64,000 bases of DNA, taken from Thermoplasmata archaeon. Lineage in GTDB: Archaea > Thermoplasmatota > Thermoplasmata > Lutacidiplasmatales > UBA184. The stretch lies in the NCBI GenBank assembly GCA_033854115.1, contig JAWOKS010000025.1:19781-83780 (forward strand). Direction: 5' to 3'. The stretch's first letter is position 1, and each line of letters starts with the position of its first letter. The notes beneath the pieces are model-generated. The model did not search any database, was not told the DNA's origin, and saw nothing but the letters and a program-made list of their open reading frames with translations. The position numbers and the translations under genes were made by a program. Positions 1,444 through 63,682 of this stretch are shown in pieces.

Positions 1444-3720
1444 ATGAGCCCCCGCCGCGCTAATCTCCCTCTTGCAGCCATGGAAGGTTCGGCCAGCGAC
1501 GCGACCCGAGCGGCCGAGCCCTCGGCCGCCTCGAGCGGCAGCCTTGCCCGCGCGCTCGGGGTGAGCCCCGAGGGCGCCCGGCGCCTGGTCGCGGCCGGCT
1601 ACGAGACCCCGGAGGCCGTGCGCGCGCTGAGCGCGAAGGAGCTCGGCCGCCTCGGGCTCGCGGCCGGCGACCTCGAGGCCCTCCAGCACGCGGAAGCGGC
1701 CCCGGTCGCCGCGGACGCGGCCGCCGAGGGATCGGCGGACGCGGAGCGCATCGTCGAGCGGTGGGTCGGCTCGGTCGCCAAGGCCGAGAAGACCCGGCGC
1801 CGGAGGTTCGCGCCCGCCGGGAAGGGCTCGACCGAGGTCCTCCGCCGCTGGGTGGAGGGCGACGACCACGCGCTCGAGGAGTGGATCCGCTCGTCGGAGG
1901 CGGTCCCCCCGTCCGCGGGGACGGTCCCGGCCCCCGCCGCGGGCGCGGGACGGGCCGGTCCGGGAGGGGGCCCGGGTTCGGCCGCGATCCTCGAGCGGGA
2001 GGCGACGGTCGTCCGCTGGCTCACCGATCTGCTCGACCGCGTCAAGTCCGACCAGTTCGACCCGACCTCGGTCGTCCAGGAGGTCCAGGAGCTCCAGCGC
2101 CAGCTCTACGACGAGCGGGCGAAGCGGAAGGAGCTCGAGGACGAGGTCGAGCACGTGAAGCGCGGCTCGATCGCGGTGATCAAGTACGTACGCGCCCGGG
2201 AGGCGAAGGAGCGCGAGGCGGCCCGACAGGCCCAGGAGGAGGAGATCGCCCGCCTTCGCCAGCGCCTCGCCTCCCTCGAGGGCCCGGCGGGCGGCCCCCC
2301 GACCGCCCCGGCCGCGGTCGCCCCTCGCGCGGGGACCCCCGCGGCGGCGGTGCCCGAGGCCCGGATCGAGGAGGCCGAGCAGAAGCTCCGCGAGGAGTTC
2401 GCGGGCCGCGAGCAGGGCCTCCTCGAGCGGGAGGCCGAGCTCCGGCGCCGGATCGTCCAGCTCGAGGGCGAGGCCCGCCGGCTGCACACCGACGCCGACC
2501 AGGCGCGGGAGCAGGCGAAGGCCGCGGTGGGGCAGGGCGGCGTCCTGGATGCCGAGCTCGCGCGCCGGCTCACCGACGCCGACCGGCGCGAGCACGACCT
2601 GATCGCGCGGGACAACGCGATCCGGGCGAAGTTCGAGGAGATCCGCATCGGCACGGAGGAGATCACCCGACGTCGCGGCCAGCTCGAGTTCAAGGAGAAG
2701 GAGCTCGCCGGCTGGGACCAGCAGCTCGAGACCCGCCGCGCCGCGCTCGACCTCGAGGCCCGACGGCTCGAGGACGCCCGGAGGGAGCTCGGCGTCGGCA
2801 CGGTCGCCGGGGCGAGCGAGGCCCAGCGGCTCGACGACCTCCGCCAGGAGCTCAACCGCAAGGAGGTCGAGCTCAAGGCGCGCGAGGGCCAGCTCGCCGA
2901 ACGGATGCGCGAGCTCGAGCGCTTGGCCAGCACCGCGGCGACCGGGGAGGCCGACCGCATGCTCGCGGAGAGCACGGCCGAGGCGAAGACCGCACGGGTC
3001 CACAGCGGCGTGCGCCGGCTCGACGACCTGCTCTACGGGGGGTACTTCCCCGGGGTCCAGCTCCTCGTCAACGGCCCCGCCCACACCGGCAAGGACACCC
3101 TCGCCCGCCTCTTCTCGGTCGAGGGGCTCCGCTCCGGGATCCCGTCCCTCTGGATCGTGACGGACAAGACCCACGGCCAGGTCCGCGACGACCTCACGGC
3201 CCTCTTCCCCCAGTACCCCGAGGCCGAGCGCAAGGGCCTCGTCCGGTACATCGACCTCTACTCGCTCTCGGTCGGGGCGACGTCGTCCGCCCCGGGGGTC
3301 CGGCTCCTCTCGCCGAACGACAAGGGGGTCCTCGAGCAGCTCGCGCAGGCCACCGATGCCTACGCAGAGCAGCTCAAGGAGCGGTTCTCGACGTACCGCC
3401 TGATCTTCGAATCGGTCTCGACCGTCGCGGCGTACCTCGACACCGCCGCGACGTTCCGCTTCCTCCAGCCGCTCATCGGCCGCCGCAAGCTGGACGGCGC
3501 CGTCGGCTACTACGAGCTCGAGAGCGGCATGCACTCGGAGTCGGACCTCGAGACGCTCGAGCACATGGTCGACGGCTCGATCAACCTCAAGCTCGAGCAG
3601 ATGAAGCCGTTCCTCCAGGTCCGGGGGATCGGCGAGGCGCAGGCCCGCAGCTGGATCGGCTACACGTTCACGAAGCGGTCGTTCAACCTCGGTTCGTTCA
3701 GCCTCGAGCACATCCGCTAG
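1444..3720 (+). CDS. KaiC/RecA-superfamily ATPase with an N-terminal helix-hairpin-helix-like region and a ~300-aa coiled coil
   Basis: ORF 1444..3720. The C-terminus has LDDLLYGGYFPGVQLLVNGPAHTGKDTLA (Walker A), YRLIFESVS (Walker B-like) and VDGSINLKLEQ...LQVRGIGEA, the typical KaiC/RadA-like layout. Roughly residues 190-500 are heptad-like and rich in E/R/K/L/A/Q. The N-terminus has LGVSPEGARRLVAAGYETPEAVRALSAKELGRLG. An alternative start is ATG 1480. Confidence 0.75.
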   Translation: MSPRRANLPLAAMEGSASDATRAAEPSAASSGSLARALGVSPEGARRLVAAGYETPEAVRALSAKELGRLGLAAGDLEALQHAEAAPVAADAAAEGSADAERIVERWVGSVAKAEKTRRRRFAPAGKGSTEVLRRWVEGDDHALEEWIRSSEAVPPSAGTVPAPAAGAGRAGPGGGPGSAAILEREATVVRWLTDLLDRVKSDQFDPTSVVQEVQELQRQLYDERAKRKELEDEVEHVKRGSIAVIKYVRAREAKEREAARQAQEEEIARLRQRLASLEGPAGGPPTAPAAVAPRAGTPAAAVPEARIEEAEQKLREEFAGREQGLLEREAELRRRIVQLEGEARRLHTDADQAREQAKAAVGQGGVLDAELARRLTDADRREHDLIARDNAIRAKFEEIRIGTEEITRRRGQLEFKEKELAGWDQQLETRRAALDLEARRLEDARRELGVGTVAGASEAQRLDDLRQELNRKEVELKAREGQLAERMRELERLASTAATGEADRMLAESTAEAKTARVHSGVRRLDDLLYGGYFPGVQLLVNGPAHTGKDTLARLFSVEGLRSGIPSLWIVTDKTHGQVRDDLTALFPQYPEAERKGLVRYIDLYSLSVGATSSAPGVRLLSPNDKGVLEQLAQATDAYAEQLKERFSTYRLIFESVSTVAAYLDTAATFRFLQPLIGRRKLDGAVGYYELESGMHSESDLETLEHMVDGSINLKLEQMKPFLQVRGIGEAQARSWIGYTFTKRSFNLGSFSLEHIR

Positions 3721-9019: not shown

Positions 9020-9925
9020 GTGCCGCCGCCCACCCGGACCTCCCTCGTGCCCCCGACCCTCGCCTCCCTCCCGACCGAGCGCGAGCAGCTCGAGTACTCG
9101 TCGCGCTCGCTCGTCTTCGTCGACGACGGGCGCCGCCTCCTCCGGGCGTGGGGGCCGCCCGAACGGCCGTTCGTCGTCGGGGTCGAACCGGCCGACGGCC
9201 GGTGGCGGGTCGCTGCGTGGGGCGCAGGTCCCCGCGAGGCCCGCGACGCGGTGCGGGCGATGTTCTCGCTCGACCATCCGCTCGGCGCGTTCTACCGCCG
9301 CGTACGGAACGAGCCGGTCCTCCGGGGGACCGAGCGACGTTTCCGGGGCCTGCGCCTTCCGAGGGACGCGCACGTCTACGAGTCGCTCGTGCATGCCGTG
9401 GTCGGCCAGCAGCTTTCGGTGGCGGCCGCGAACGCGATCAAGCGTCGCCTGGTCGAGCGGTTCGGCCACCCTCTCCTGGCGGACGGGGTCGAGGTGCCCT
9501 ATCTTCCTCCGCCCTCGGCCCTGCGGGTCGCCGGGGCCGACGGTCTCCGCTCCCTCGGGCTCAGTCGGGCGAAGGTGAGGAGCCTTCTCGCGGTCGCGGA
9601 GGCCGGTCCGCGGGCGTTCCCGGCGAGGACCCTCGGCACGGTCGAGCTGGAACGCGCGCGGCGGGCGCTCGAGCGATGGCCCGGCGTCGGCCCCTGGACC
9701 GCCGAGAACGTCCTTCTACGGGGCACGGGTCGGCGGGACGTCTTTGTCGGCGGCGACCTCGGGATCCGCGTCGCCCTCGACCGCTTCGGGGTGGTGCCGC
9801 GGCGCGCTCCGGAGGAGGCCGCGCGGCGGTGGGCCGAGGCCGCCTACCCCGGCTGGGGGAGCTACGCGACGCTCTACCTCTGGCGGAAGCTCGTCGCCGA
9901 GCGCGCGGAGGCGGCGGCCGGCTAG
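9020..9925 (+). CDS. HhH-GPD DNA glycosylase (AlkA / 3-methyladenine glycosylase II-like)
   Basis: Contains VHAVVGQQLSVAAANAIKRRLVERFG, then LSRAKVRSLLAVAE, then LERWPGVGPWTAENVLLRGTGRRDVFVGGDLGIRVAL (HhH + Gly/Pro loop + catalytic Asp). GTG start. Confidence 0.8.
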   Translation: MPPPTRTSLVPPTLASLPTEREQLEYSSRSLVFVDDGRRLLRAWGPPERPFVVGVEPADGRWRVAAWGAGPREARDAVRAMFSLDHPLGAFYRRVRNEPVLRGTERRFRGLRLPRDAHVYESLVHAVVGQQLSVAAANAIKRRLVERFGHPLLADGVEVPYLPPPSALRVAGADGLRSLGLSRAKVRSLLAVAEAGPRAFPARTLGTVELERARRALERWPGVGPWTAENVLLRGTGRRDVFVGGDLGIRVALDRFGVVPRRAPEEAARRWAEAAYPGWGSYATLYLWRKLVAERAEAAAG

Positions 9926-10443
9926 GCGTCCCCTGCGGCCGCGCCCCGGAGCGGCAGGGCGGCGAGGGTCCGGTGGACGGCCCCGCCGGCGCCGAGCACG
10001 CTCTCCTTGAGGAGGAGCTCGTGCACCGCGACCTCCCGGGGGGGAGGGGCGGGCCGCCGGCCGGCGAGGAGCTCCTCGGCCGCCCGCCGGTCCGCCTCCG
10101 ACCGCACGCGGAAGAGCGTGAGATGCGGGACGAAGAGCTCGCGGGTCTCGGCCGGTTCGCCGATCGCCTCGCGGACCCGACGTGCGAGTTCCACCACCTC
10201 CTCCCGTCCCGCGCTGACGCCGACCCAGACGACCCGCGGCCGCGTGGACGAGGGGAACGCGCCCACCCCCTCGATGCGGAGGACGAACGGAGCGAACCCG
10301 CGCGCGACCTCGTCGAGGCGTTCGACGAGCCAGCCGTTCCGTTCCGCCGGGACCTCGCCGAGGAAGAGGAGGGTGAGGTGCGGGCTCGCTCGGTCGCGGG
10401 CCGCCGCGGGGTCCCCGACCTCGATCGCGACGAACTCCCTCAC
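9922..10443 (-). CDS. ligT: 2H phosphoesterase family protein (2',5' RNA ligase LigT / ThpR-like)
   Basis: Two H-x-T-x motifs at the expected spacing (HLTLLFLG and HLTLFRV). The protein is ~173 aa. The GTG start overlaps the stop of the upstream ATPase gene (GTGA at 10440-10443). Confidence 0.8.
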   Translation of the reverse strand: MREFVAIEVGDPAAARDRASPHLTLLFLGEVPAERNGWLVERLDEVARGFAPFVLRIEGVGAFPSSTRPRVVWVGVSAGREEVVELARRVREAIGEPAETRELFVPHLTLFRVRSEADRRAAEELLAGRRPAPPPREVAVHELLLKESVLGAGGAVHRTLAALPLRGAAAGDA

Positions 10444-13028
10444 GACGGAAGGGACCGCGCGGGCGCTTTACCGTCTAGCGGGGCGGTCCCCTCGGCGGCG
10501 AGCGGCCCGCCGAGGGTCCAGACCTGGGCCCGGTCCGGGCCCGCGCCGAGGCCCGCGAGGGTCCGACGGACCCGCGCGGCCCGGCGCGGATCGCCCACGA
10601 CGAAGACCACGAACGCTCCCCGGCCCCTCGCCTTCGCGAGGCCGTGGCGGATCCGTTCCGGCCGGGTCGCGCCCGAGACCTCGACCTCGACGTGCACGTC
10701 GCGCCCGCGGAAGCACCGCCACGCCCAACCTCCCTGCGCGATCGCGATCGCCTCCGCGAGCTCGCCCGGCGAACGTTGACGCGCTCCGTCCGGGAGCTGG
10801 CGGAACAGGGCATCCGGGAGCGTTGTGTCGAACCGCCCCTGCCGGACGATCTCGAGCCGGTAGCCTCTCCGGGCGAACAGGCGGAACGCCCGCACGAGGA
10901 GGTTCCGGTGCTCCGCGCTCTCCCGGCTCGCCCCGGTCGAGGTCCGCACGCCGAGCCAGCGCGTTCCGGCCGCGGTGAGGTGGAGCGTTCCTCCGGCCTC
11001 GGCGACGAGGCCGCACCGGCCGAGGGTCGGGGCCCGGGCCTCGAGCTCGACCGGGTCGGTGGGCGGTCCGGGAAGCTCGCGGGCCGCGGCGACCGCCGTG
11101 CCCGCAGGGAGCGGCCGCCCCTGCTCCTCAGCGGCCAGGATCGCGAGGAGGAGCCGCTCGGTGCCGTCGTCCGGGTGCGTGTCGGCGCTGTGGTCCGCCG
11201 GGCGGAACTCCCCGGCCGTCCGCCCGACCGCGGCGGTCCATCCGAGTCCCTCGTCCCCGTCCGCCCTCGGGCCGGCGACCGCGCGAAGCTCCCCGGAGCC
11301 GCCCGTACGCACGACCGCACAGCCGGTCGGGAGCCCGGGGAGGACGTCGCCCGCGTCGGCGGCCGAGAGCCCGATCCACGCGCCGAGCGCCGCGGCGTTC
11401 GCCAGGGGGGTCCGGAAGACGTGGACGGACCGGCTGACCCCGGCCGCGGCCGCGCGAAGTTCCGGCGCGAGCCGCTCGGGGAACTGGCTCGCGAGGAGCA
11501 GGTGGAGCCCGAACTTCCGCCCCTCGGCGAGCATCTCGGCGACGAGGCGCGGGGCGAGCATCTGCACCTCGTCCAGCACGACGAGGAAGGGGGGAGCGAT
11601 TGGGGAGCCCGGGGTCCCGCGTCCGGCCGCGAGCCCGAGGTAGACCCGCGCGAGGACGAGCGAGGCTGCGAACGACGCCGCCTCGGGACCGACCTCCGCG
11701 AACGGCAGGCGGACGAGGAGCGACCGTCCCCCGCGGAGAAGGTCCTCGACGGGGACCCCTCCGTCCGAGGGGGCGAGCAGCTCCGTGAGGGACGGCACGA
11801 GCACGACCTTCGCGAGGCGCGCGGCGGCCGGCCAGAGGAACTCCGGGTTCCGTCGTACGATCGGGCCGAGCTCGTCCAGGAACGCCCGGAGCTCCGGGAC
11901 CCGGCTCGCGAGCCGCGCCGCGTCCCGGCGGTCCGCCTCGGTGAGGAGCGCGTAGAGGTCGAGGAGCGAGCCACCCGACTCCTGAACGAGCCGCACGAAC
12001 GCGTCGAAGATCCGCTCGAGGCGGAACCCCCAGTAGACCTCGGTCCCGTCCGGACTGAGCCGCTTGACCGCCGCGACCAGCTGGCCGGCCGCCCGCTCGT
12101 CCGAGCCGGCCAGCGCCGCCACGCCGACGACCGGTCGTCGGGTGACGTCGACGGCAACGACCCGGGCCCGCTCGGACGGTGCGAGCCGGCCAACAATCGC
12201 GGGCGCGAGGTCCCCATGGAGGTCGAGCGCAACGACCGTTCGCCCCCCGCGGATCGCGGCCGCGGCCCGTTCGGCGAGGAAGCTCGTCTTCCCCGCGCCC
12301 GAAGCTCCGAGGGCGAGCGCGTGCCCGTCCTCCCCCGTTCCCGGGCCGGTCCCGCTGATCGGCCGGGGCTCGGCGGTGCGCTCGGCGCGCGTCGGAGCGA
12401 GCGCGAGCCAGCATCCGCGGGGCAGCGTCCGCCCGTCCCCGAGGCGCCAGCCGCGATCGGTCCAGGGCCGGACGACCTCGGCCCGGCAGACAACGCCCGT
12501 GGCCCGGCTCCACTCGGCGGCGCCGAGGGTCCGCACCGACGGCGCCCGGGCCGCGAGCTCGTCCGCGGAGGGGTGGGTGAACCGGCTCCGCCGGGCGACC
12601 CAGATCCGTCCGTCGTCCCGCCGGGCGAGCCAGAACGTCTGGAACTCGAGCCGCCCTCCCGCTCCTAGGCTGGCTTCGGGAAGCGGCGCCTCCCAGGGCC
12701 CGAGCGCCCGGAACCCCGTGGGGGAGACCCCGACCGGCCGGTAGAGGTGGACCTCCTCGCGTCCGTTCTCCGGCTTGACCGTGCCGACGGGCGGATCCGC
12801 GTCCACCGGCCGGAGGGGAGGCGCGGACGGTCGGGCGAGCCACGGGCCGACGAGCGAAGCCGGACGGACCGTGACGCGGGGGAGCGGCCGCTCGGTCGAC
12901 GACTCGAACAGCACGCCCGCCGGGCGCTCGATGGCGACGAGCGCTTCAGCGAGCGCCCGGTAAAGGGACAACCGCCGCTCGGGGTCGAGCGGGGCCGTGA
13001 GAGCGAGGGATCCCGATCCCGCGGTCAT
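10440..13028 (-). CDS. HerA/FtsK/VirD4-clade P-loop ATPase (DUF87-like) with a C-terminal wHTH-like region and a restriction-endonuclease-like region
   Basis: Contains HALALGASGAGKTSFL (Walker A), PPFLVVLDEVQMLAP (Walker B) and GRKFGLHLLLASQFPERL (typical of HerA/FtsK-like ATPases). The C-terminal ~230 aa has a helix-rich segment (ERLLLAILAAEEQGRPL...LHLTAAGTRWL), then AEHRNLLVRAFRLFARRGYRLEIV...LPDALF...DVHVEVEVSG...GRGAFVVFVV. Confidence 0.8.
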   Translation of the reverse strand: MTAGSGSLALTAPLDPERRLSLYRALAEALVAIERPAGVLFESSTERPLPRVTVRPASLVGPWLARPSAPPLRPVDADPPVGTVKPENGREEVHLYRPVGVSPTGFRALGPWEAPLPEASLGAGGRLEFQTFWLARRDDGRIWVARRSRFTHPSADELAARAPSVRTLGAAEWSRATGVVCRAEVVRPWTDRGWRLGDGRTLPRGCWLALAPTRAERTAEPRPISGTGPGTGEDGHALALGASGAGKTSFLAERAAAAIRGGRTVVALDLHGDLAPAIVGRLAPSERARVVAVDVTRRPVVGVAALAGSDERAAGQLVAAVKRLSPDGTEVYWGFRLERIFDAFVRLVQESGGSLLDLYALLTEADRRDAARLASRVPELRAFLDELGPIVRRNPEFLWPAAARLAKVVLVPSLTELLAPSDGGVPVEDLLRGGRSLLVRLPFAEVGPEAASFAASLVLARVYLGLAAGRGTPGSPIAPPFLVVLDEVQMLAPRLVAEMLAEGRKFGLHLLLASQFPERLAPELRAAAAGVSRSVHVFRTPLANAAALGAWIGLSAADAGDVLPGLPTGCAVVRTGGSGELRAVAGPRADGDEGLGWTAAVGRTAGEFRPADHSADTHPDDGTERLLLAILAAEEQGRPLPAGTAVAAARELPGPPTDPVELEARAPTLGRCGLVAEAGGTLHLTAAGTRWLGVRTSTGASRESAEHRNLLVRAFRLFARRGYRLEIVRQGRFDTTLPDALFRQLPDGARQRSPGELAEAIAIAQGGWAWRCFRGRDVHVEVEVSGATRPERIRHGLAKARGRGAFVVFVVGDPRRAARVRRTLAGLGAGPDRAQVWTLGGPLAAEGTAPLDGKAPARSLPS

Positions 13029-13171
13029 CGCTCCCCCTCGGGCTCCGGCACCCCGACGACTCTCTTCGGGACGCGGAGCGGGGGCGACCCTACGGTCCAG
13101 GGCCGGCGTTCCCAGGCGCGTTCGCGTGGAAGGGGTTCGCGCATCCTCGGCTCGCGACGTTCGTCGCGCAT
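13025..13171 (-). CDS. Possible 48-aa Arg/Glu/Pro-rich small protein, translationally coupled to the ATPase gene
   Basis: My own translation gives MRDERREPRMREPLPRERAWERRPWTVGSPPLRVPKRVVGVPEPEGER*. Its TGA overlaps the ATG of the 862-aa gene (ATGA at 13025-13028). GAAGGAGGCGAGAAGG lies just upstream of the ATG. It falls below the ORF-track size cutoff and its composition is not diagnostic. Confidence 0.3.
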   Translation of the reverse strand: MRDERREPRMREPLPRERAWERRPWTVGSPPLRVPKRVVGVPEPEGER

Positions 13172-13752
13172 CTTCTCCAACCTTCTCGCCTCCTTCGCTG
13201 ACGCCGTGCGGGTGGAGGCGACCCCGCGCGGGTGGGCCTCCCGGTCCGGAACGGACGCCGAAGGCCCTACGTCGAGGGAACCCCGGCCAGGCTCCCGCTC
13301 GAGGTCGGCGGCCGGACGGCGGCTACGCCGCGACTACGGCGGGGGTCCGGGGGGGTCTCGGGCTCCGGGCGCGGACGAGGCGTCCGCGGGGGGGCGCGGG
13401 ACCCCGGGCCGGGGAGAGGGGCCTTCTCGCAGGGACCGTGCTCGGGGGGTTCAGCTCGACCGTCCGGTCGATCGAACGCGCAGAACGCGGGGCGAGGAGA
13501 AGGTCTCCATCGACGTACGGGGGACGGAGCCGGTCCGAGAAGAGGAACGCGTCGCGCGCCCCGGAACGTGAAAGATGGAGGTGGTGGGAAGGTGCCCCGC
13601 ACGTCGGGACGCGGTACCGTCCCCTGCGACGATCTTGGGGAACCTTCCCTGGGGTGGTTGCATACCTAAGACCGCAGGCCGGCTACTTGAACCCCGGAAC
13701 GGGGGGTCGTGGAACGGTCCTCTCGGGGACCGGTTCCGACCGAGGTGACCCG

Positions 13753-58258: not shown

Positions 58259-59065
58259 GTGGGCGGCCGGTCGCGGCAGGGAGGGGTCCGGCTGGTGCGC
58301 GGCGACGCGCGCGTCCTCGAGGGGATCCCCGACGCCTCCGTCGACCTCATCGTCACGAGCCCCCCCTACCCGATGATCCCCCAGTGGGACGAGCTGTTCC
58401 GCCGCCTGGGCGCCACGGACCATGCCGCGATGCTCCGCGTCCTGGCGGACGCCTGGAAGGCGGCCTACCGCGTCCTGGTCCCGGGCGGCCTCCTTGCGGC
58501 GGTCGTCGGGGATGCCCTGCGCCGGGGGGAGGACGGGTTCCGGCTGTGGGCCAACCACGCCGCGACGCTCCTCGACGCCGAGGCCGCGGGGTTCGTGCCG
58601 CTGCCGTACGTCCTGTGGAAGAAGCCGACGAACCGGCCGAACGCCTACCTCGGCTCCGGTTTCCTTCCTCCGAACGCCTACGTCACGCTCGACTGCGAGT
58701 TCGTCCTGCTCCTCAGGAAGGGCGCCCTGCGGGGCTTCCCGCCCCACGACCCCCGCCGCGAGGCGAGCCGGTTCACCCGGGCCGAGCGCGACCGATGGTT
58801 CTCCCAGGTCTGGGACGACGTGCGCGGGGCCCCCCAGCGCGGACCGCGAGGGAGAACAGGGGCGTTCCCCCCGCACCTTCCCGAGCGCCTGATCCGCATG
58901 TTCTCGGTCGTTGGCGACACCGTGCTCGACCCGTTCGCCGGCACCGGAACGACCGTGTGGGCGGCGGCGCGCCTCGGGCGCCGGGCGATCGGGGTCGAGT
59001 ACGATGCCACGACGTTCGCGTCCCTCGTCGCGGACGCGCGGCGCCGGGGCCTCGTCAGGGCGTAG
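58259..59065 (+). CDS. Site-specific DNA methyltransferase, beta class (N4-cytosine or N6-adenine)
   Basis: Motif IV DLIVTSPPYP comes before motif I VLDPFAGTGTT, which is the beta-class order. SPPY is more typical of m4C enzymes. I recognised no restriction endonuclease next to it. Confidence 0.8.
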   Translation: MGGRSRQGGVRLVRGDARVLEGIPDASVDLIVTSPPYPMIPQWDELFRRLGATDHAAMLRVLADAWKAAYRVLVPGGLLAAVVGDALRRGEDGFRLWANHAATLLDAEAAGFVPLPYVLWKKPTNRPNAYLGSGFLPPNAYVTLDCEFVLLLRKGALRGFPPHDPRREASRFTRAERDRWFSQVWDDVRGAPQRGPRGRTGAFPPHLPERLIRMFSVVGDTVLDPFAGTGTTVWAAARLGRRAIGVEYDATTFASLVADARRRGLVRA

Positions 59066-59684
59066 GCGCCGCGGGCGGCGGTGCGGCCGCCGGGGGAGCC
59101 TCCGCGGGCGGGGCTGGGGCCGAGGACGCCGCCGTGGGCTCGGGCGTCCCGTCGGGGTCCGTCGAAGTGAGGGGCGCGATCGGGGTCGGCGGCGGGAGCG
59201 GCCCGGGGGAGGTCCTCGCCCGGTGGGCGAGCTCCTCGTCCACCGTGGTGCGGAGGTAGCGGAGCGCGGCGTCCCCGAGGCGGTCGAGGTGCAGGAGAAG
59301 GTAGTGGAGGTAGAGCCGCTCCGGTCGGGAGAGCGGCCCCGGTAGACGGACCCGCTCCCCGAGCGCGGCGGGCGGGGGGCGATGCCGCTCGAGGGTCTCC
59401 GCGTGGTGCTCGTGGTCCGGGCCGTGGTAGTCCCGCCCCGCCGCTCCCACGAGCGGAGGGTAGACGTGGCCGACCGGGTCGTAGCGTTCCTCGGGGGCGT
59501 TCGCCCCTCCGTTCCCGCCTCTTCCCGACGCGGCTCCGAGCTTCGCCTGGAGGTACGGGTGCACGGGCCGGCTGGGGTCCTGGAACTCCCCGATCGGCCG
59601 ACCGGAGACGTCCTCGACGATCGTCTTCAGGCTCCAGCTCGCGCGTCGCCGCGCCGGGCCGTCGGCCGTCGCACCGTCCGGCAC
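59055..59684 (-). CDS. Hypothetical protein with a His-rich patch and a Pro/Ala-rich tail
   Basis: ORF 59055..59684(-), immediately downstream of the VirB4-like gene. The central region has ordinary composition (RLYLHYLLLHLDRLGDAALRYLRTTVDEELAHR). It also has DYHGPDHEHHAETLERH. I recognised no family. Confidence 0.45.
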   Translation of the reverse strand: MPDGATADGPARRRASWSLKTIVEDVSGRPIGEFQDPSRPVHPYLQAKLGAASGRGGNGGANAPEERYDPVGHVYPPLVGAAGRDYHGPDHEHHAETLERHRPPPAALGERVRLPGPLSRPERLYLHYLLLHLDRLGDAALRYLRTTVDEELAHRARTSPGPLPPPTPIAPLTSTDPDGTPEPTAASSAPAPPAEAPPAAAPPPAAPTP

Positions 59685-59708
59685 GCCGGAAAGGGGTCGT
59701 TGCCCGGT

Positions 59709-61406
59709 CTATAAACCCCCACCTCCATCGGAACGGGTCGCCGACCCGGGCTCGGCCCCCCGGGCTCCGAGGGCGGCGCTGATCAGCTCGAACTCCGGGG
59801 TCGAGGCGACGAGCGCGAGCGGAAGGTGCCAGCCGCCGACCCTCCAGAGCGACTCCGCGTAGCCCGCCTCCCGCGGCAGACGCGCCCGGGGAAGCCACTC
59901 CGCCTCGGACGCCGACAGCCCGAAGAACGCCCGGCTCGCCTCCGAGACCTCGGGAAGCCGCAGGAGGCCGACGGCGAACAGGTTGCGGAGGAGCGACCGG
60001 CCGCTCGGACGGCCGAGGAAGTCGTCCGGATTCTGCGTGACGAGGAGGACGCCCGCCTCGAAGTGGCGGACATGCCGGACGAGCCGGTCGAGGAACTCGG
60101 TGGTCCCCTCGTGTCGGGCGACGAGGTGGGCCTCGTCGAGCAGGAGGAGTTTCGGGCCGGGCCCCCGGGCGAGCCGGTGGTAGGACCAATCGAGCAGGTA
60201 CGTCAGGTGGAACGGGAGCTGGTCGTCCGGGATCCCCGAGAGGTCGATCGCGGTGAGGGGGTCGTCGACGCGCAGGGTCGTCGGCCCGTTCACGCCGCGG
60301 AGGGACCCCGACCGGAAGACCTCGAGCAGGGTCGCGAGCCGCGCGGCCCCCGGTCCGAGAGCGTCGAGGTCGTCCCGGAGGGCATCGAACGTGACCCCGT
60401 CCGCCGCGCGGTCGTACTCTCGGCTCAACGCGGCATCGAGGAGCGCGGTCTCCTCGTCACGCAGGCTCGGGAAGAGGGCCCGAAGCATGGTGCCGACCCT
60501 TCCGGCCTTCTCGCGACGATCGCCGGCCGTGGTGGCGAGGTCGAGCGGGTTCAGCCGGCCGGACTCCGGGTCCGCGAGGCGCACGACGGTCCCCCCGAGC
60601 GAGCGGACGAGCCGCGAGTACTCCCCGAGGGGATCGAGCACCAGCACCTCCGTCTCGGGCCGGAGCCACCGCGTCCGGAGGACCGTGAGCGCCGCGCCGA
60701 ACGATTTCCCGGAGCCGGTCGTTCCGAAGATCCCCCACGAGTGGCTCGCGTGGGCCCAGCGGTCAAGGAAGACCGGGCTCGCGTCGGCGAGCGCGAGCCC
60801 GAGCAGGACGCCGCCGGGCTCGAGGACCGTCTCGTCGCCGAACGGGAAGAGGGCCCCGACCCCGTCCGTGGTGAGCGTCTGCCAGTACCCTCGGGGCCGC
60901 CCGGAGGACCGGGCGAACGTGAGCGGGGCGAGGGCCTCCGCCGTCTCGTAGCGGGGGACGCGCGTGCGGAACCCGAGCGCGGCGAGCCGCTCGGCGAGCT
61001 GACGGCGGGCGGTCTCCGCCCCGGCCCGCGAGGAGCTGTTCGCGACGAAGCGGAGGCCGGTCCTCCAGAGCTCCTGGACGCGTCCGGCGAGCGCCCGACC
61101 GAGCTCCTCGGCGGCGACGCGCTCGACCTCGAGCTCGGGCGTCGCCGGCCCGCCGCCGCCCGCGGCCAGCTCGGCCTCCGCGACGGCGCGCGCCGCTTGA
61201 ACGACCTCGAGCGCCCGGGCCGGAGGGAGCCGTTCGGCCTCGAGGGCGACGTGGACGGGCGTCGAGGAGGAGGCCACGCGCCCGACGAACCCGAACGGGA
61301 CCTCGGGGGGGAAGCGGTGGACGAGGAGGGGGGCGGCGAAGCGGCGCCCGACCCGGAGCCACGTCGGACCCTCCCACCGGCCCGACGTGCGGTCGCCCGA
61401 CCTCAC
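59709..61406 (-). CDS. VirB4/TrbE/CedB-like type-IV-secretion ATPase
   Basis: Contains WGIFGTTGSGKSFGAALTVL (Walker A), PKLLLLDEAHLVARHEG (Walker B) and GVLLVTQNPDDF. An N-terminal VirB4-like segment is TWLRVGRRFAAPLLVHRFPPEVPFGFVGRV. I place the start at GTG 61406, which overlaps the stop of the upstream gene (GTGA). The 670-aa track ORF is over-extended. Confidence 0.8.
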   Translation of the reverse strand: MRSGDRTSGRWEGPTWLRVGRRFAAPLLVHRFPPEVPFGFVGRVASSSTPVHVALEAERLPPARALEVVQAARAVAEAELAAGGGGPATPELEVERVAAEELGRALAGRVQELWRTGLRFVANSSSRAGAETARRQLAERLAALGFRTRVPRYETAEALAPLTFARSSGRPRGYWQTLTTDGVGALFPFGDETVLEPGGVLLGLALADASPVFLDRWAHASHSWGIFGTTGSGKSFGAALTVLRTRWLRPETEVLVLDPLGEYSRLVRSLGGTVVRLADPESGRLNPLDLATTAGDRREKAGRVGTMLRALFPSLRDEETALLDAALSREYDRAADGVTFDALRDDLDALGPGAARLATLLEVFRSGSLRGVNGPTTLRVDDPLTAIDLSGIPDDQLPFHLTYLLDWSYHRLARGPGPKLLLLDEAHLVARHEGTTEFLDRLVRHVRHFEAGVLLVTQNPDDFLGRPSGRSLLRNLFAVGLLRLPEVSEASRAFFGLSASEAEWLPRARLPREAGYAESLWRVGGWHLPLALVASTPEFELISAALGARGAEPGSATRSDGGGGL

Positions 61407-61777
61407 GGGACCTCCCGCGGTGCCGCCTTCGCCCTCGTCCGACGCCCGGTCGCCCAAAGCGGGACGAGCGCAAGGCCGAGGAGGAACCCGCGCTCGGTCG
61501 CCAGGGCGGGGGGCGGATCGAGGAACAGCCCGACCATCCCCGCGAGCAGGGCGAGGGCCAGCGCCGGAGCGAGCCGGGAACCGGTCGCCGGGCCGGGTCC
61601 GGCCGCCCGTCGTTGCCGGGAGGCCCAGCCCGCGACCGCGAGGGCGGCGAGGGGGAGCAGGACCGGCGCCAGCGTAGGGACGGCGAGCGACAGCGCTCCG
61701 GCGATGACGGCAAGACCGCACGCGGTGCCGAACGCCTCGAACCCGAGGTCGGAGGCCATCCGAGCGCGCCCGATCAT
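61403..61777 (-). CDS. Small integral membrane protein (3-4 TM) of the T4SS-like operon
   Basis: It has hydrophobic segments ACGLAVIAGALSLAVPTLAPVLLPLAALAVAGWA, LAPALALALLAGMVGLFL and GFLLGLALVPLWA. Both gene boundaries overlap their neighbours by 4 nt. Confidence 0.6.
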   Translation of the reverse strand: MIGRARMASDLGFEAFGTACGLAVIAGALSLAVPTLAPVLLPLAALAVAGWASRQRRAAGPGPATGSRLAPALALALLAGMVGLFLDPPPALATERGFLLGLALVPLWATGRRTRAKAAPREVP

Positions 61778-62556
61778 CCCCGCGAGGACCTCTCCCCGAG
61801 GCCCATCTTCCGGCTCGCGTCCTCGAGCGCCCGATCCCGCAGCCGCTCCGGCCGGAGCCCGAGGCCGGCGAGCCGGTCTCGGAGCGCCGCGATCGAACTC
61901 TCGAGCCGGCCGTGGTCCTCCGGACCGGCCCCCTCCACGGCCACGGCGACGTAGACCCGTCGCACGGACCGTCGTCGGGCGAGGAGCCCGACGAGCTCAG
62001 CGTAGCCGTCGCGGGCCTTCCGCTCGGTCCCGACGGGCGCGGGCTCCGCCGGGGCGAGCGCGTTCGCGAAGATCGGGGCGGACGTCGCGACGATCGCGAG
62101 GCTCCCGTCCAGGGACCGGAGGAGCTCGCGGTACTGTTCGAACGTGCGGGCGAGCTCGTCGGGGGGGAGGTAGGCCAGTGGTACCCCGCCCGTGCGGACG
62201 ATCCCGGCCAGCCGGCCGTCCTCGAGCCGCACCGTCGATCTCCTTCGGGTCGGGGAGGCCCGCTCGGGCCCGGTCACGCGGTTCCCTCGGGCGAGCCGTC
62301 GGCCCGTCCAGCGGAGCAGGGGGCCGAGGCGCTCGTGGAGGGGCTCGTGGCCGGGACGCGCCATCGTGAGCGCGGAGGCGAGCAGCACGACCGGGACTCC
62401 GGCCCAGGGCCCCGCCACAAGGGCGAGGATCCCGCCGATTGCGGCCCCGGTGACGAACCCGAGCGCCTCCCGCCCCGAAGGGAAGGGACCGAGCCGAAGC
62501 CTCCGATCGAGGCGTTCGGGCACGGCGACCCGCGGCGGCCCGTCACCGTCGGCCAT
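61774..62556 (-). CDS. PrgI/VirB3-like membrane hairpin fused to a soluble domain resembling the N-terminal segment of Gram-positive-type VirB4
   Basis: Contains MADGDGPPRVAVPERLDRRLRLGPFPSGREALGFVTGAAIGGILALVAGPWAGVPVVLLASALTMA, then STVRLEDGRLAGIVRTGGVPLAYLPPDELARTFEQYRELLRSLDGSLAIVATS. I place the start at ATG 62556 (the track gives 62652). Confidence 0.6.
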   Translation of the reverse strand: MADGDGPPRVAVPERLDRRLRLGPFPSGREALGFVTGAAIGGILALVAGPWAGVPVVLLASALTMARPGHEPLHERLGPLLRWTGRRLARGNRVTGPERASPTRRRSTVRLEDGRLAGIVRTGGVPLAYLPPDELARTFEQYRELLRSLDGSLAIVATSAPIFANALAPAEPAPVGTERKARDGYAELVGLLARRRSVRRVYVAVAVEGAGPEDHGRLESSIAALRDRLAGLGLRPERLRDRALEDASRKMGLGERSSRG

Positions 62557-63682
62557 CCTCGCCCCGCTCCGCGGAATGGAACGGCGGCAGCCGGGGCGGT
62601 CGGTCGCGGAGGCCCGGGCCGTGTCCCAGGTGGCGCGCGAGGTGCCGGGCACCGTGCCCGAGGAGCTCGTGGACGGCGGTGGGGATCGCGAGGGGAGCGG
62701 TCGCGCCGGCCACCGAACGGACGCTCCCGAGGGCCGCGCGGGCGGCCGGGCCCGATGCCGCGGCGGCGCTGGCGGACGGGGCGACCAGCCCGACCCCCGC
62801 CGACGGAGCGCTCGCGAACCCCCGCTGGACGCCGCTCTGGGCGAGCCCGCCGGCGCCCGGGAAGCCGAGGGCGACCAGGTGACCGCCCGCGGTCGAGAGG
62901 AGGAACGGGGCTCCGAGCGCGGCGGTCAGGTAGCCGACGAGGAGGATCGGGTTCGGGCTCCCGACGGCCAGTTCGAGCGGCACGACGAGCACGCACGGGA
63001 GGAACGCGAGCTCCGCGAACAGGAGCCAGGCCCGTCGCGGGATCGAGGAGAGGGGTCGGAACGGCCAGAGCAGGGTGAGGAGCGGGAGGACGACCAGGAG
63101 CGTGGCGAGCACGGCGTCCCGGATCCCCACCGCGAGCAGGAGCCCGAAGACGAGGGCGAACTCCGCGACCGCGAGCACGAACGCGAGCGCCCCGTTGTCC
63201 CAGGAGAAGCGGAGCTCGCCCCAGCCGGCGAGGTCGACCCAGTGGGTCCAGGCCCCCCCGTCCCAGCCCGCGACGACCGGGTAGAGGCCCCCGGCGACCG
63301 AGAGGATCCCCGCCGCGATCGGGACGGTGAAGTTGGCGGCGAAGACCGCGATGACGAGTCGCGTGAGGAGCCCGTCGAACTCGACCGCCCATCGGGCGAC
63401 GGTCGCCCGTGCGAGGTAGAGGAGCGCGACCCCGAGCGCGAGGAGCGCGACGAGCGGGTCGACGACGTTCCCGAGCAGGTACGCGGAGAACGCCGCGGCC
63501 TTCCCGAGGAAGTCCGTGGGGCCGCTTCCGTACACCGCGGGGTAGAGCGCGGACGAGGCGAGCTCGGGGACGAGCAGGTGGTCGTAGGTCGGGCCGACGA
63601 CGGCCGCGACCAGGGCCGTGAGGTCGGCGAAGAGGAGGAAGAGGATCGTGCGGACCAGATCGCCGACGTCGACCGCAAGCAT
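62543..63682 (-). CDS. Polytopic membrane protein (about 7 TM), VirB6/TrbL/CedA-like candidate
   Basis: ORF 62543..63682(-). It has repeated long hydrophobic helices (ILFLLFADLTALVAAVV, LVALLALGVALLYLA, LVIAVFAANFTVPIAAGILSVAGGL, FVLAVAEFALVFGLLLAV, LATLLVVLPLLTLLW, LLFAELAFLPCVLVVPL, ILLVGYLTAALGAPFLL) and a basic/Ala-Ser-rich C-terminal tail. Confidence 0.65.
   Translation of the reverse strand: MLAVDVGDLVRTILFLLFADLTALVAAVVGPTYDHLLVPELASSALYPAVYGSGPTDFLGKAAAFSAYLLGNVVDPLVALLALGVALLYLARATVARWAVEFDGLLTRLVIAVFAANFTVPIAAGILSVAGGLYPVVAGWDGGAWTHWVDLAGWGELRFSWDNGALAFVLAVAEFALVFGLLLAVGIRDAVLATLLVVLPLLTLLWPFRPLSSIPRRAWLLFAELAFLPCVLVVPLELAVGSPNPILLVGYLTAALGAPFLLSTAGGHLVALGFPGAGGLAQSGVQRGFASAPSAGVGLVAPSASAAAASGPAARAALGSVRSVAGATAPLAIPTAVHELLGHGARHLARHLGHGPGLRDRPPRLPPFHSAERGEDGRR

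Follow-up and report, generated by a model that had tools for sequence, protein, structure and literature searches.

A 64,000-nucleotide stretch of DNA from a Thermoplasmata archaeon (contig JAWOKS010000025.1; "the window" denotes this whole stretch) carries a genuine three-gene operon that uncultured Thermoplasmata archaea inherit vertically. The central gene encodes an 862-residue multidomain ATPase, in which a DNA pump of the coupling-protein type is joined to a DNA-binding, nuclease-like tail. This architecture is undescribed and is conserved clade-wide; literature and library searches found no description of the ATPase family. The flanking genes encode a LigT/ThpR phosphoesterase and a small open reading frame (ORF), which is probably the remnant of a genuine partner gene. 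The role favored here, tentatively, is DNA processing and hand-over for transfer, akin to that of a coupling protein plus a relaxase.

Three chained genes

The operon lies on the minus strand:

9922-10443, minus strand: LigT/ThpR, 173 amino acids (aa), GTG start, from the ORF listing
10440-13028, minus strand: multidomain ATPase, 862 aa, ATG start, from the ORF listing
13025-13180, minus strand: small upstream ORF, 51 aa from the TTG at 13180 or 48 aa from the ATG at 13171

A first-pass annotation of the window described three minus-strand ORFs chained by two start/stop overlaps of four nucleotides (nt), and both overlaps are read directly in the sequence. At the junction of the small ORF and the ATPase gene (...GCGATGACC...), the ATGA at 13025-13028 joins the TGA stop of the former to the ATG of the latter. 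At the junction of the ATPase and LigT genes (...TCGTGAGGG...), the GTGA at 10440-10443 joins the ATPase stop to the GTG start of LigT.

G+C content is 72-77% across the entire 64 kb, and third-codon-position G+C (GC3) is 0.91 for the ATPase gene and 0.93 for LigT, values typical of genes in this high-GC window. The GC3 of the small ORF is lower, at 0.78-0.79. Moreover, the ATGA overlap arises because the ATPase begins with a conserved Met-Thr and the overlapping high-GC frame is poor in stop codons. The overlap is therefore automatic, and from the window alone the small ORF does not rise above chance.

The LigT gene also meets, convergently, a gene for an HhH-GPD DNA glycosylase (9020-9925, plus strand). 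The stop codons of the two share the CTAG at 9922-9925.

A coupling-protein-like motor

The amino-terminal part of the ATPase contains these features:

12333-13028, minus strand: amino-terminal domain, residues 1-232; family-specific, mixed α/β, no transmembrane segment
11229-12332, minus strand: P-loop ATPase core, residues 233-600
12285-12308, minus strand: Walker A motif GASGAGKT, residues 241-248
11562-11582, minus strand: Walker B motif VVLDEVQ, residues 483-489
Residues 502-507: motif EGRKFG

The 862-aa protein belongs to the FtsK-HerA ATPases. It is soluble and of a TrwB/VirD4-like type rather than a typical HerA. Its structure was modeled with AlphaFold from a 21-sequence alignment (mean predicted local distance difference test, pLDDT, 78.3). 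The model places an all-α insertion in the ATPase core, at about residues 311-432, and residues G241, S243, G244, G246, K247, D486, and E487 are invariant in the alignment. The top match in a Foldseek search of the PDB is TrwB (E 4e-10; TM-score normalized to the target, TM(target), 0.60-0.64; root-mean-square deviation 4-5 Å over about 390 columns). Ranked after it are HerA, the DndH C-domain, VirB4, and DotL-type coupling complexes; over TrwB, HerA, VirB4, and the DndH C-domain, E-values range from 4e-10 to 1e-6. The first-pass annotation had called this a HerA/FtsK/VirD4-type P-loop core. Its superfamily assignment holds, through both the Walker motifs and the fold; the likeness to HerA gives way to a closer one to TrwB.

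This similarity lies at the level of the domain fold. A profile search of PDB sequences returned only Walker-motif-level matches, to HerA and TrwB, and Pfam gave only weak matches, to TrwB_AAD_bind and AAA_30. Several homologs nonetheless bear a precomputed PF10412 annotation, and the more distant core relatives, at E 1e-20 to 1e-28, prove to be TrwB_AAD_bind plus TraG-D_C proteins of varied architecture. The NCBIfam models for CedB, HerA, TraD, and VirB4 all match weakly, far under their cutoffs; the two HerA models score 11.2 bits against a cutoff of 970 (NF040819) and 13.9 against 800 (NF042943). Among PADLOC models, mad8 matches residues 233-541 at 2.1e-15, and the core also matches the DndH model and, weakly, the HerA models. 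The ATPase probably forms a ring, presumably a hexamer.

The amino-terminal domain was suggested at first to be possibly HAS-barrel-like. That suggestion finds no backing: the AlphaFold model is mixed α/β, and residues 1-232 have no match in Pfam and no profile match in the PDB. The Kyte-Doolittle maximum of the whole ATPase is 1.64, at about residue 450, inside the core. When the amino- and carboxyl-terminal regions were searched in isolation, neither had a match in Pfam, NCBIfam, or PADLOC.

A winged helix and a nuclease-like tail

Beyond the motor, the following elements are recognized:

10953-11171, minus strand: winged helix-turn-helix (wHTH), residues ~620-692; three helices then a β-hairpin in the model
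10509-10931, minus strand: nuclease-like α/β domain, residues ~700-840
10905-10922, minus strand: ESAEHR, a motif of the nuclease-like domain
10803-10820, minus strand: LPDALF, residues 737-742
10671-10697, minus strand: VHVEVEVSG, residues 778-786
10623-10643, minus strand: GLAKARG, a motif of the nuclease-like domain

The motifs quoted in the first-pass annotation (GASGAGKT, VVLDEVQ, LPDALF, and VHVEVEVSG) are all present in the 862-aa protein. Residues 615-845 were also modeled separately, with a pLDDT of 90.7 and a predicted TM-score (pTM) of 0.86. This model supports the wHTH-like stretch that had been proposed, followed by an α/β domain with the element order α-β-β-(helical insert)-β-α-β-α-β, an order compatible with the α-β-β-β-α-β core of the PD-(D/E)XK nucleases. 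Five residues of this domain are invariant across 17 divergent sequences, including relatives merely 24-36% identical in the tail domain: H707; D739, in a PD motif; E781 and E783, in VEAEVS; and K799. The resulting signature, H…PD…ExE…K, has ExE where the canonical version has ExK, with the lysine in the next helix.

The domain was initially likened to restriction-endonuclease cores. The invariant residues support that likeness; the fold stays unconfirmed by the structural searches. No Pfam or PDB sequence match was found for the tail domain, its profile giving only noise against the PDB. Against BFVD, Foldseek gave weak matches, with E-values of 0.016-0.5 and TM(target) reaching 0.55 at most. 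A noticeable fraction of them carry the names nuclease, restriction endonuclease, VRR-NUC, or endonuclease I; a MarR-type regulator also appears among them. The PDB search matched wHTH-bearing O-methyltransferases (TM 0.2-0.27), a likeness of architecture only that was set aside as evidence for the tail fold.

The bacterial proteins P0237 and P0264 provide a parallel. Both have a homologous ATPase core and end in a wHTH plus Replic_Relax (PF13814), and their tails show the corresponding pattern H…PD…ExD…K. Published work places Replic_Relax in the PD-(D/E)XK superfamily (PMC3424549), and it corresponds to the MobC relaxase class (PMC5357655). The archaeal tail itself has no Pfam PF13814 match. 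Taken with the models, the conserved residues make a restriction-endonuclease fold probable for the terminal domain: it is nuclease-like, with a fold that is not proven. Nuclease activity, and DNA as the substrate, are inferred. No family library annotates this α/β domain, in keeping with the first-pass label of a candidate undescribed module.

A small partner protein

Relatives were compared at 90 distinct loci of about 14 kb, of which 83 are informative downstream of the ATPase gene and 81 upstream; individual loci are cited as L083 and so on. The lead to a partner gene was a 136-aa ORF upstream of the ATPase gene in L083. The partner protein has an amino-terminal M-x(9-14)-[EQ]P[VIL][PR] motif and a 79-aa domain (VRLPIAGPYRPWARLY…LWxVRLWE…), and the stop of its gene overlaps the ATPase start. 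A gene with this 79-aa domain is found in the same position and frame in 53 of the 81 loci. Independent gene callers report it as a protein of 106-109 aa, and one partner-ATPase pair bears adjacent NCBI locus tags (ACRECT_08935 and ACRECT_08940). The family has 356 members in the protein collection, mostly of 80 or 106-109 aa. Among the 120 members listed, all 17 organism names given are Thermoplasmata, and a Pfam domain is absent from every one of the 120.

The window and its closest relatives are without the 79-aa domain, and carry in the same frame and place an ORF of 28-53 aa. In the close relatives these ORFs keep only the amino-terminal motif. A profile hidden Markov model (HMM) of the amino-terminal part of the partner found its top five matches exactly there, in L065, L015, L068, L004, and L052 (independent E-values 1.6e-4 to 0.12); the 48-aa ORF of the window gave no significant score with it. 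The upstream gap was compared by blastn and profile HMMs, tblastx being dominated by low-complexity high-GC matches. Searched by blastn against the loci of relatives, positions 13029-13560 show no nucleotide conservation. The small proteins have no match in Pfam, NCBIfam, or PADLOC. The best PDB profile match of the partner, PA3566 (E 0.013), is not trusted as a relative, and the remaining matches are noise.

The comparison across relatives thus rescues the small ORF as a gene only partly. By position and frame, the 48-aa ORF is probably a remnant of a genuine partner gene, likely truncated: the partner would measure about 106 aa in most lineages, down to a remnant of 28-53 aa in the lineage of the window. 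The amino-terminal domain of the ATPase probably docks this small upstream protein.

In a divergent subfamily comprising L081, L086, and L088, a different conserved ORF precedes the ATPase gene and overlaps its start:

L081 5783-6004; L086 5008-5244; L088 4989-5189: upstream ORF of 67-78 aa, no family match

LigT, a frequent companion

The third gene was proposed to encode a LigT-type 2H phosphoesterase, and this is upheld. The protein scores well above cutoff for Pfam LigT_PEase (PF02834; 2.4e-23, 82.5 against 23.3 bits) and for the NCBIfam equivalog TIGR02258 (RNA 2',3'-cyclic phosphodiesterase; 91.3 against 65.7 bits), and also matches 2_5_RNA_ligase2. It contains both expected HxT motifs:

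10369-10380, minus strand: HLTL, residues 22-25
10114-10125, minus strand: HLTL, residues 107-110

Judged by family, LigT is an ordinary ThpR and a bona fide 2H enzyme. Its gene lies directly downstream of the ATPase gene, on the same strand, in 73 of the 83 informative loci. The 4-nt overlap between the two is confined to the window, L002, and L003; elsewhere a spacer of 24-27 nt is usual. LigT is not downstream of the ATPase gene in the remaining 10 loci, which show five different arrangements:

L060 and L067: convergent PrsW protease after the ATPase gene, no LigT
L062, L069, and L074: second ATPase cluster after the ATPase gene, no LigT
L081 (8740-9207) and L086 (8020-8487): conserved 155-aa protein, without family match, after the ATPase gene, no LigT
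L084 and L090: methyltransferase after the ATPase gene, no LigT
L088: nothing on the same strand after the ATPase gene, no LigT

Because LigT is absent downstream in these 10 loci, the pairing is not fixed; by the strict form of the first-pass annotation's own test, which was whether orthologs of the ATPase lack an adjacent 2H phosphoesterase, a fixed pairing is refuted. The association is strong but facultative. The pair is kept in L053 and L058 despite the glycosylase gene having moved upstream; in L087, in a context of DnaJ and oxidoreductase genes; and in L092, with a different downstream flank. In L083 a methyltransferase gene is wedged between ATPase and LigT, with 4-nt overlaps on either side. 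The other flank of LigT varies among loci.

These observations bear on the earlier proposal that the ATPase-nuclease and LigT form an obligate module for RNA repair or for cyclic or 2',5'-oligonucleotide signalling. For example, RNA cut by the tail would end in 2',3'-cyclic phosphates for ThpR to heal. Such a module would account for the frequency of the pair, for its survival through at least four flank arrangements (L053/L058, L083, L087, and L092), and for its tight spacing (24-27 nt or overlap); moreover, the invariant His and Lys of the tail are compatible with metal-independent RNA cleavage. However, the pair is broken in five arrangements and interrupted in L083, LigT is an ordinary ThpR equivalog, and motors of the TrwB/FtsK-HerA kind pump DNA. 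There is no sign of cyclic-oligonucleotide signalling in particular, and no cyclase, sensor, or ligase gene lies nearby. The proposal is weak, and very unlikely to be right. Since the link to LigT is facultative, experiments are better steered away from RNA-repair and signalling models.

A core-genome locus of one archaeal clade

Most of the 120 best ATPase homologs listed span the full length (738-888 aa); identity is 50-63%, and every organism name given by a source is Thermoplasmata. An exhaustive HMMER search returned 108 representative clusters (50% identity) below 1e-30. A scan of one genome per species found relatives in 114 genome contigs, nearly all labeled Thermoplasmata, with UBA184 and Lutacidiplasmatales among the labels. 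A metagenome scan, made with a narrower alignment, contributed three useful loci. The family is found almost only in metagenome-assembled Thermoplasmata genomes.

The whole neighborhood, about 15 kb, is syntenic across the clade. Leading up to the ATPase gene come oxidoreductases, a DUF4147 protein, a 199-aa protein, an HxlR regulator, and the gap; after it come LigT, the HhH-GPD glycosylase, a PKD-domain surface protein, and serine hydroxymethyltransferase (SHMT). Each fetched locus has one ATPase copy. Across loci, ATPase identity to the window protein rises and falls with the identity of the neighbors (Spearman rho 0.42-0.85), and the ATPase evolves faster, with a median identity of 51% as against 72-80% for the oxidoreductase and SHMT. 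Conserved synteny and divergence in step with the neighbors indicate a vertically inherited core-genome locus, not a mobile or a defence island. The first-pass suggestion of a defence system fares poorly: PADLOC matched no such system at the locus, only the ATPase core matches any of its models, namely the generic mad8, HerA, and DndH ones, and the synteny is that of housekeeping genes.

Could the operon serve housekeeping itself? The ATPase might be a DNA-maintenance motor, doing in this lineage what HerA-NurA does in end resection or FtsK in chromosome resolution, with the winged helix acting as the FtsK γ domain does and the nuclease processing ends or junctions. Its single copy per locus and its vertical, core-syntenic inheritance would suit such a role, as would its occurrence in those 114 contigs. 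A winged helix likewise follows the motor in FtsK; HerA is among the top fold matches; and a DNA glycosylase is often the next gene, convergently oriented. However, the family is limited to one Thermoplasmata clade, and the HerA models yield 11-14 bits where 800-970 are required. As had been noted from the outset, the HerA partners NurA, Mre11, and Rad50 are absent from the neighboring genes. Furthermore, decay of the partner gene in the lineage of the window argues against an essential two-part machine. A maintenance motor is an unlikely explanation.

Synteny also raises the prospect that there is no system at all: three independent genes would stand side by side by inheritance, the 48-aa ORF being a non-coding chance frame. 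The clade-wide order of some 15 kb speaks for this, and so does the small ORF, with its GC3 of 0.78, its lack of significant similarity to the partner family, and an ATGA explained by the Met-Thr start of the ATPase. However, in 53 of 81 loci a conserved partner gene runs into the start of the ATPase gene, ATPase and LigT stay together through rearrangements on both sides, and intergenic spacers are uniformly short. Mere juxtaposition is quite improbable.

Methyltransferases and a VirB4-like cluster

In separate lineages, two unrelated type-II-like N4/N6 DNA methyltransferases are encoded directly downstream of the ATPase. The window has a standalone enzyme of this kind, which converges with a four-gene VirB4-like cluster:

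L083 8775-9926: methyltransferase, PADLOC PDLC03354, 6e-137
L084 8129-9136 and L090 3269-4201: methyltransferase, PADLOC PDLC03283, 3.5e-139
58259-59065, plus strand (window): standalone N6_N4 DNA methyltransferase
59055-63682, minus strand (window): four-gene VirB4-like cluster, next to the methyltransferase

The window methyltransferase is 44-46% identical to the one that directly follows the ATPase gene in L084, L085, L089, and L090. The adjacent cluster encodes a 379-aa polytopic membrane protein with at least six transmembrane-like segments; a 292-aa protein with a transmembrane segment; a 209-aa proline-rich protein; and a 670-aa VirB4-like ATPase (PDB 4ag5 at 4.7e-11; Pfam DUF87, P-loop_TraG, and AAA_10). 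An orthologous cluster is the immediate convergent neighbor of the TrwB-like ATPase gene in L062, L069, and L074. Identity between the clusters is 51-57% for three of the four proteins, and 37-39% for the 292-aa one. The cluster may be a translocon resembling Ced or a type IV secretion system (T4SS); a separate relaxase gene is not present. Each of the two adjacencies, with methyltransferase and with VirB4 cluster, may reflect a single evolutionary event.

The methyltransferases invite the main rival explanation, a restriction-like defence nuclease: a translocase-endonuclease would scan and cut foreign DNA while the methyltransferase, adjacent in some lineages and unlinked in that of the window, protects self. 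Two unrelated methyltransferases have come to rest directly behind the ATPase gene, one of them with overlaps on both sides, and the orphan enzyme of the window resembles that of L084. The core matches the PADLOC models mad8, HerA, and DndH and has a fold match to the DndH C-domain, and the ATPase evolves faster than its neighbors. However, a methyltransferase adjoins the ATPase gene in only 3 of the 83 informative loci, a specificity subunit is not present, and the mad8 match is a generic one at the level of the ATPase, in a locus where PADLOC recognizes no system. A fixed housekeeping position with vertical inheritance would also be unusual for defence genes. Restriction is a possible explanation, though a doubtful one.

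A model for DNA processing and transfer

The favored reading, hand-over of processed DNA, is built on a parts list. The motor, the relaxase-like tail, the VirB4 and membrane module, and the methyltransferase together resemble, by analogy, the components of conjugative DNA transfer. In this model the winged helix would guide the protein to a certain site or structure on DNA, the terminal domain would nick or cut the DNA there, and the motor would then pump it. A coupling protein and a relaxase-like nuclease would thereby be united in one polypeptide. The enzyme would work with the VirB4-like ATPase and polytopic membrane protein encoded by the same genome. LigT/ThpR would be co-transcribed in many cases, yet dispensable: a passenger or accessory, and not the effector.

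Several results weigh against this model. On the motor side, TrwB_AAD_bind falls below the Pfam cutoff in the window protein (16.6 against 20.5 bits). Canonical coupling proteins have an amino-terminal membrane anchor, and Kyte-Doolittle analysis found none in residues 1-232. As for the tail, Foldseek of its model against the PDB gave no nuclease match, and hhalign of its profile against the Replic_Relax tails was not significant (E 0.048 and 0.098). The link to MobC/Replic_Relax is accordingly kept as a resemblance only.

The genomic setting supplies further objections. No integrase or other mobile-element genes occur near the core-syntenic locus, and tblastn against 72,556 plasmids gave no match for the full protein, its tail, or the P0237 tail. 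No oriT-like element (origin of transfer) was found upstream of the operon, where a repeat scan gave short two-copy repeats that may be due to chance. The VirB4-like cluster of the window is 46 kb from the TrwB-like ATPase gene, and adjacency of the two is limited to one sub-lineage, probably through a single rearrangement. Finally, methyltransferases adjoining the ATPase gene fit a restriction role equally well.

A more ambitious version of the transfer model can be framed, and is rather unlikely to hold as a whole. Soil and peat Thermoplasmata would possess a domesticated, vertically inherited, conjugation-like DNA-transfer apparatus, analogous to Ced/Ted. It would comprise a fused coupling ATPase and relaxase-like site-specific nuclease, the ~106-aa partner, a VirB4/membrane translocon, and a methyltransferase protecting the transferred DNA.

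Whichever reading prevails, the amino-terminal domain, the carboxyl-terminal domain, and the small partner match no curated family. If the ATPase is a component of DNA transfer, then abundant uncultured soil archaea have chromosomally encoded DNA exchange, and a single chain can unite coupling and relaxase functions. A restriction-like role would make it an unusually stable core-genome defence nuclease. The analysis defines residues by which these hypotheses can be tested: K247, D486/E487, H707, D739, E781, E783, and K799.

The upstream gap and other features of the window

The roughly 580 bp upstream of the operon had been described as lacking a credible ORF. This is correct for proteins; the stretch does hold a conserved structured RNA candidate:

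13570-13730, minus strand: structured RNA candidate with a hairpin at 13586-13650, directly downstream of the HxlR gene

The hairpin, of about 65 nt, has 21 consensus pairs, 16 of which show compensatory changes in 35 sequences; its G-U pairs favor the minus strand. A TATA-like GTTCAAGTA lies about 25 nt upstream of a conserved TGCAACCACCCC. Rfam contains nothing matching the candidate at E<=1. With a covariance model, it was found once in the window and once behind HxlR in each of the HxlR-bearing loci tested, and nowhere that HxlR is absent. Because the candidate always follows HxlR and is missing without it, it travels with HxlR and not with the ATPase operon. This linkage rules out the 160-nt element as an oriT or as a leader of the operon.

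Just upstream of the small ORF, at 13200-13241, are 16-nt direct repeats (GACGCCGTGCGGGTGG and GACCCCGCGCGGGTGG) with 20-nt spacing, overlapped by a 16-nt palindrome. These could be an operator, or chance in high-GC DNA. Elsewhere in the window, positions 1444-3720 (plus strand) encode a 758-aa protein with a carboxyl-terminal KaiC/DUF7504 ATPase domain and a coiled-coil region.

Comparison with known systems

HerA-NurA, Sir2-HerA, and DUF4297-HerA likewise couple an FtsK-HerA ATPase to a nuclease, and HerA is among the top fold matches. In those pairs the nuclease is a separate subunit, such as NurA or DUF4297, whereas here it is fused to the ATPase. The amino-terminal domain also differs from that of HerA: its model, whose fold was not searched alone, is mixed α/β and offers no evidence of a HAS-barrel.

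Similarity to MADS (mad8) and to Dnd/Ssp (DndH) is restricted to the ATPase domain, with a methyltransferase occasionally adjacent in the archaeal loci. MADS is an eight-gene operon, mad1 to mad8, that includes a methyltransferase, a specificity subunit, and a kinase. No other MADS or Dnd genes are present near the ATPase gene, whose neighbors encode the HxlR regulator, glycosylase, SHMT, and oxidoreductases. Membership in MADS was rejected on this ground. The mad8 match is read as generic ATPase similarity because the HMMs of MADS derive from alignments to the PDB made with HHpred (preprint 10.1101/2023.03.30.534895).

LigT is typical of the E. coli ThpR/archaeal 2'-5' RNA ligase family; only its frequent operonic place behind the ATPase gene is unusual.

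The archaeal Ced/Ted systems are comparable in that this genome likewise encodes a chromosomal VirB4-like ATPase and a polytopic membrane protein, to which the TrwB-like ATPase may be functionally linked. The NCBIfam CedB model matches only its P-loop (15.9 bits against a cutoff of 700). Ced/Ted are not known to use a coupling-protein/relaxase-like fusion.

MobC relaxases (Replic_Relax) show the same architecture as the tail, in which a PD-(D/E)XK-type domain comes after the wHTH, with the parallel H…PD…Ex(D/E)…K pattern; this is a resemblance for which homology is not demonstrated. In contrast to their setting, no oriT or mobile element is evident at the ATPase locus.

The type IV coupling proteins (TrwB of R388, VirD4, TraD/TraG) are the best structural match for residues ~230-600. 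Shared features are the P-loop domain with its all-α insertion; the occurrence of TrwB_AAD_bind and TraG-D_C in relatives; and, presumably, a hexameric, DNA-pumping mode of action. Unlike them, the archaeal ATPase is without a membrane anchor, and instead has a soluble amino-terminal domain of 230 aa and a fused wHTH and nuclease-like tail. And whereas those coupling proteins are borne by plasmids or integrative and conjugative elements, this one is chromosomal, core-syntenic, and vertically inherited.

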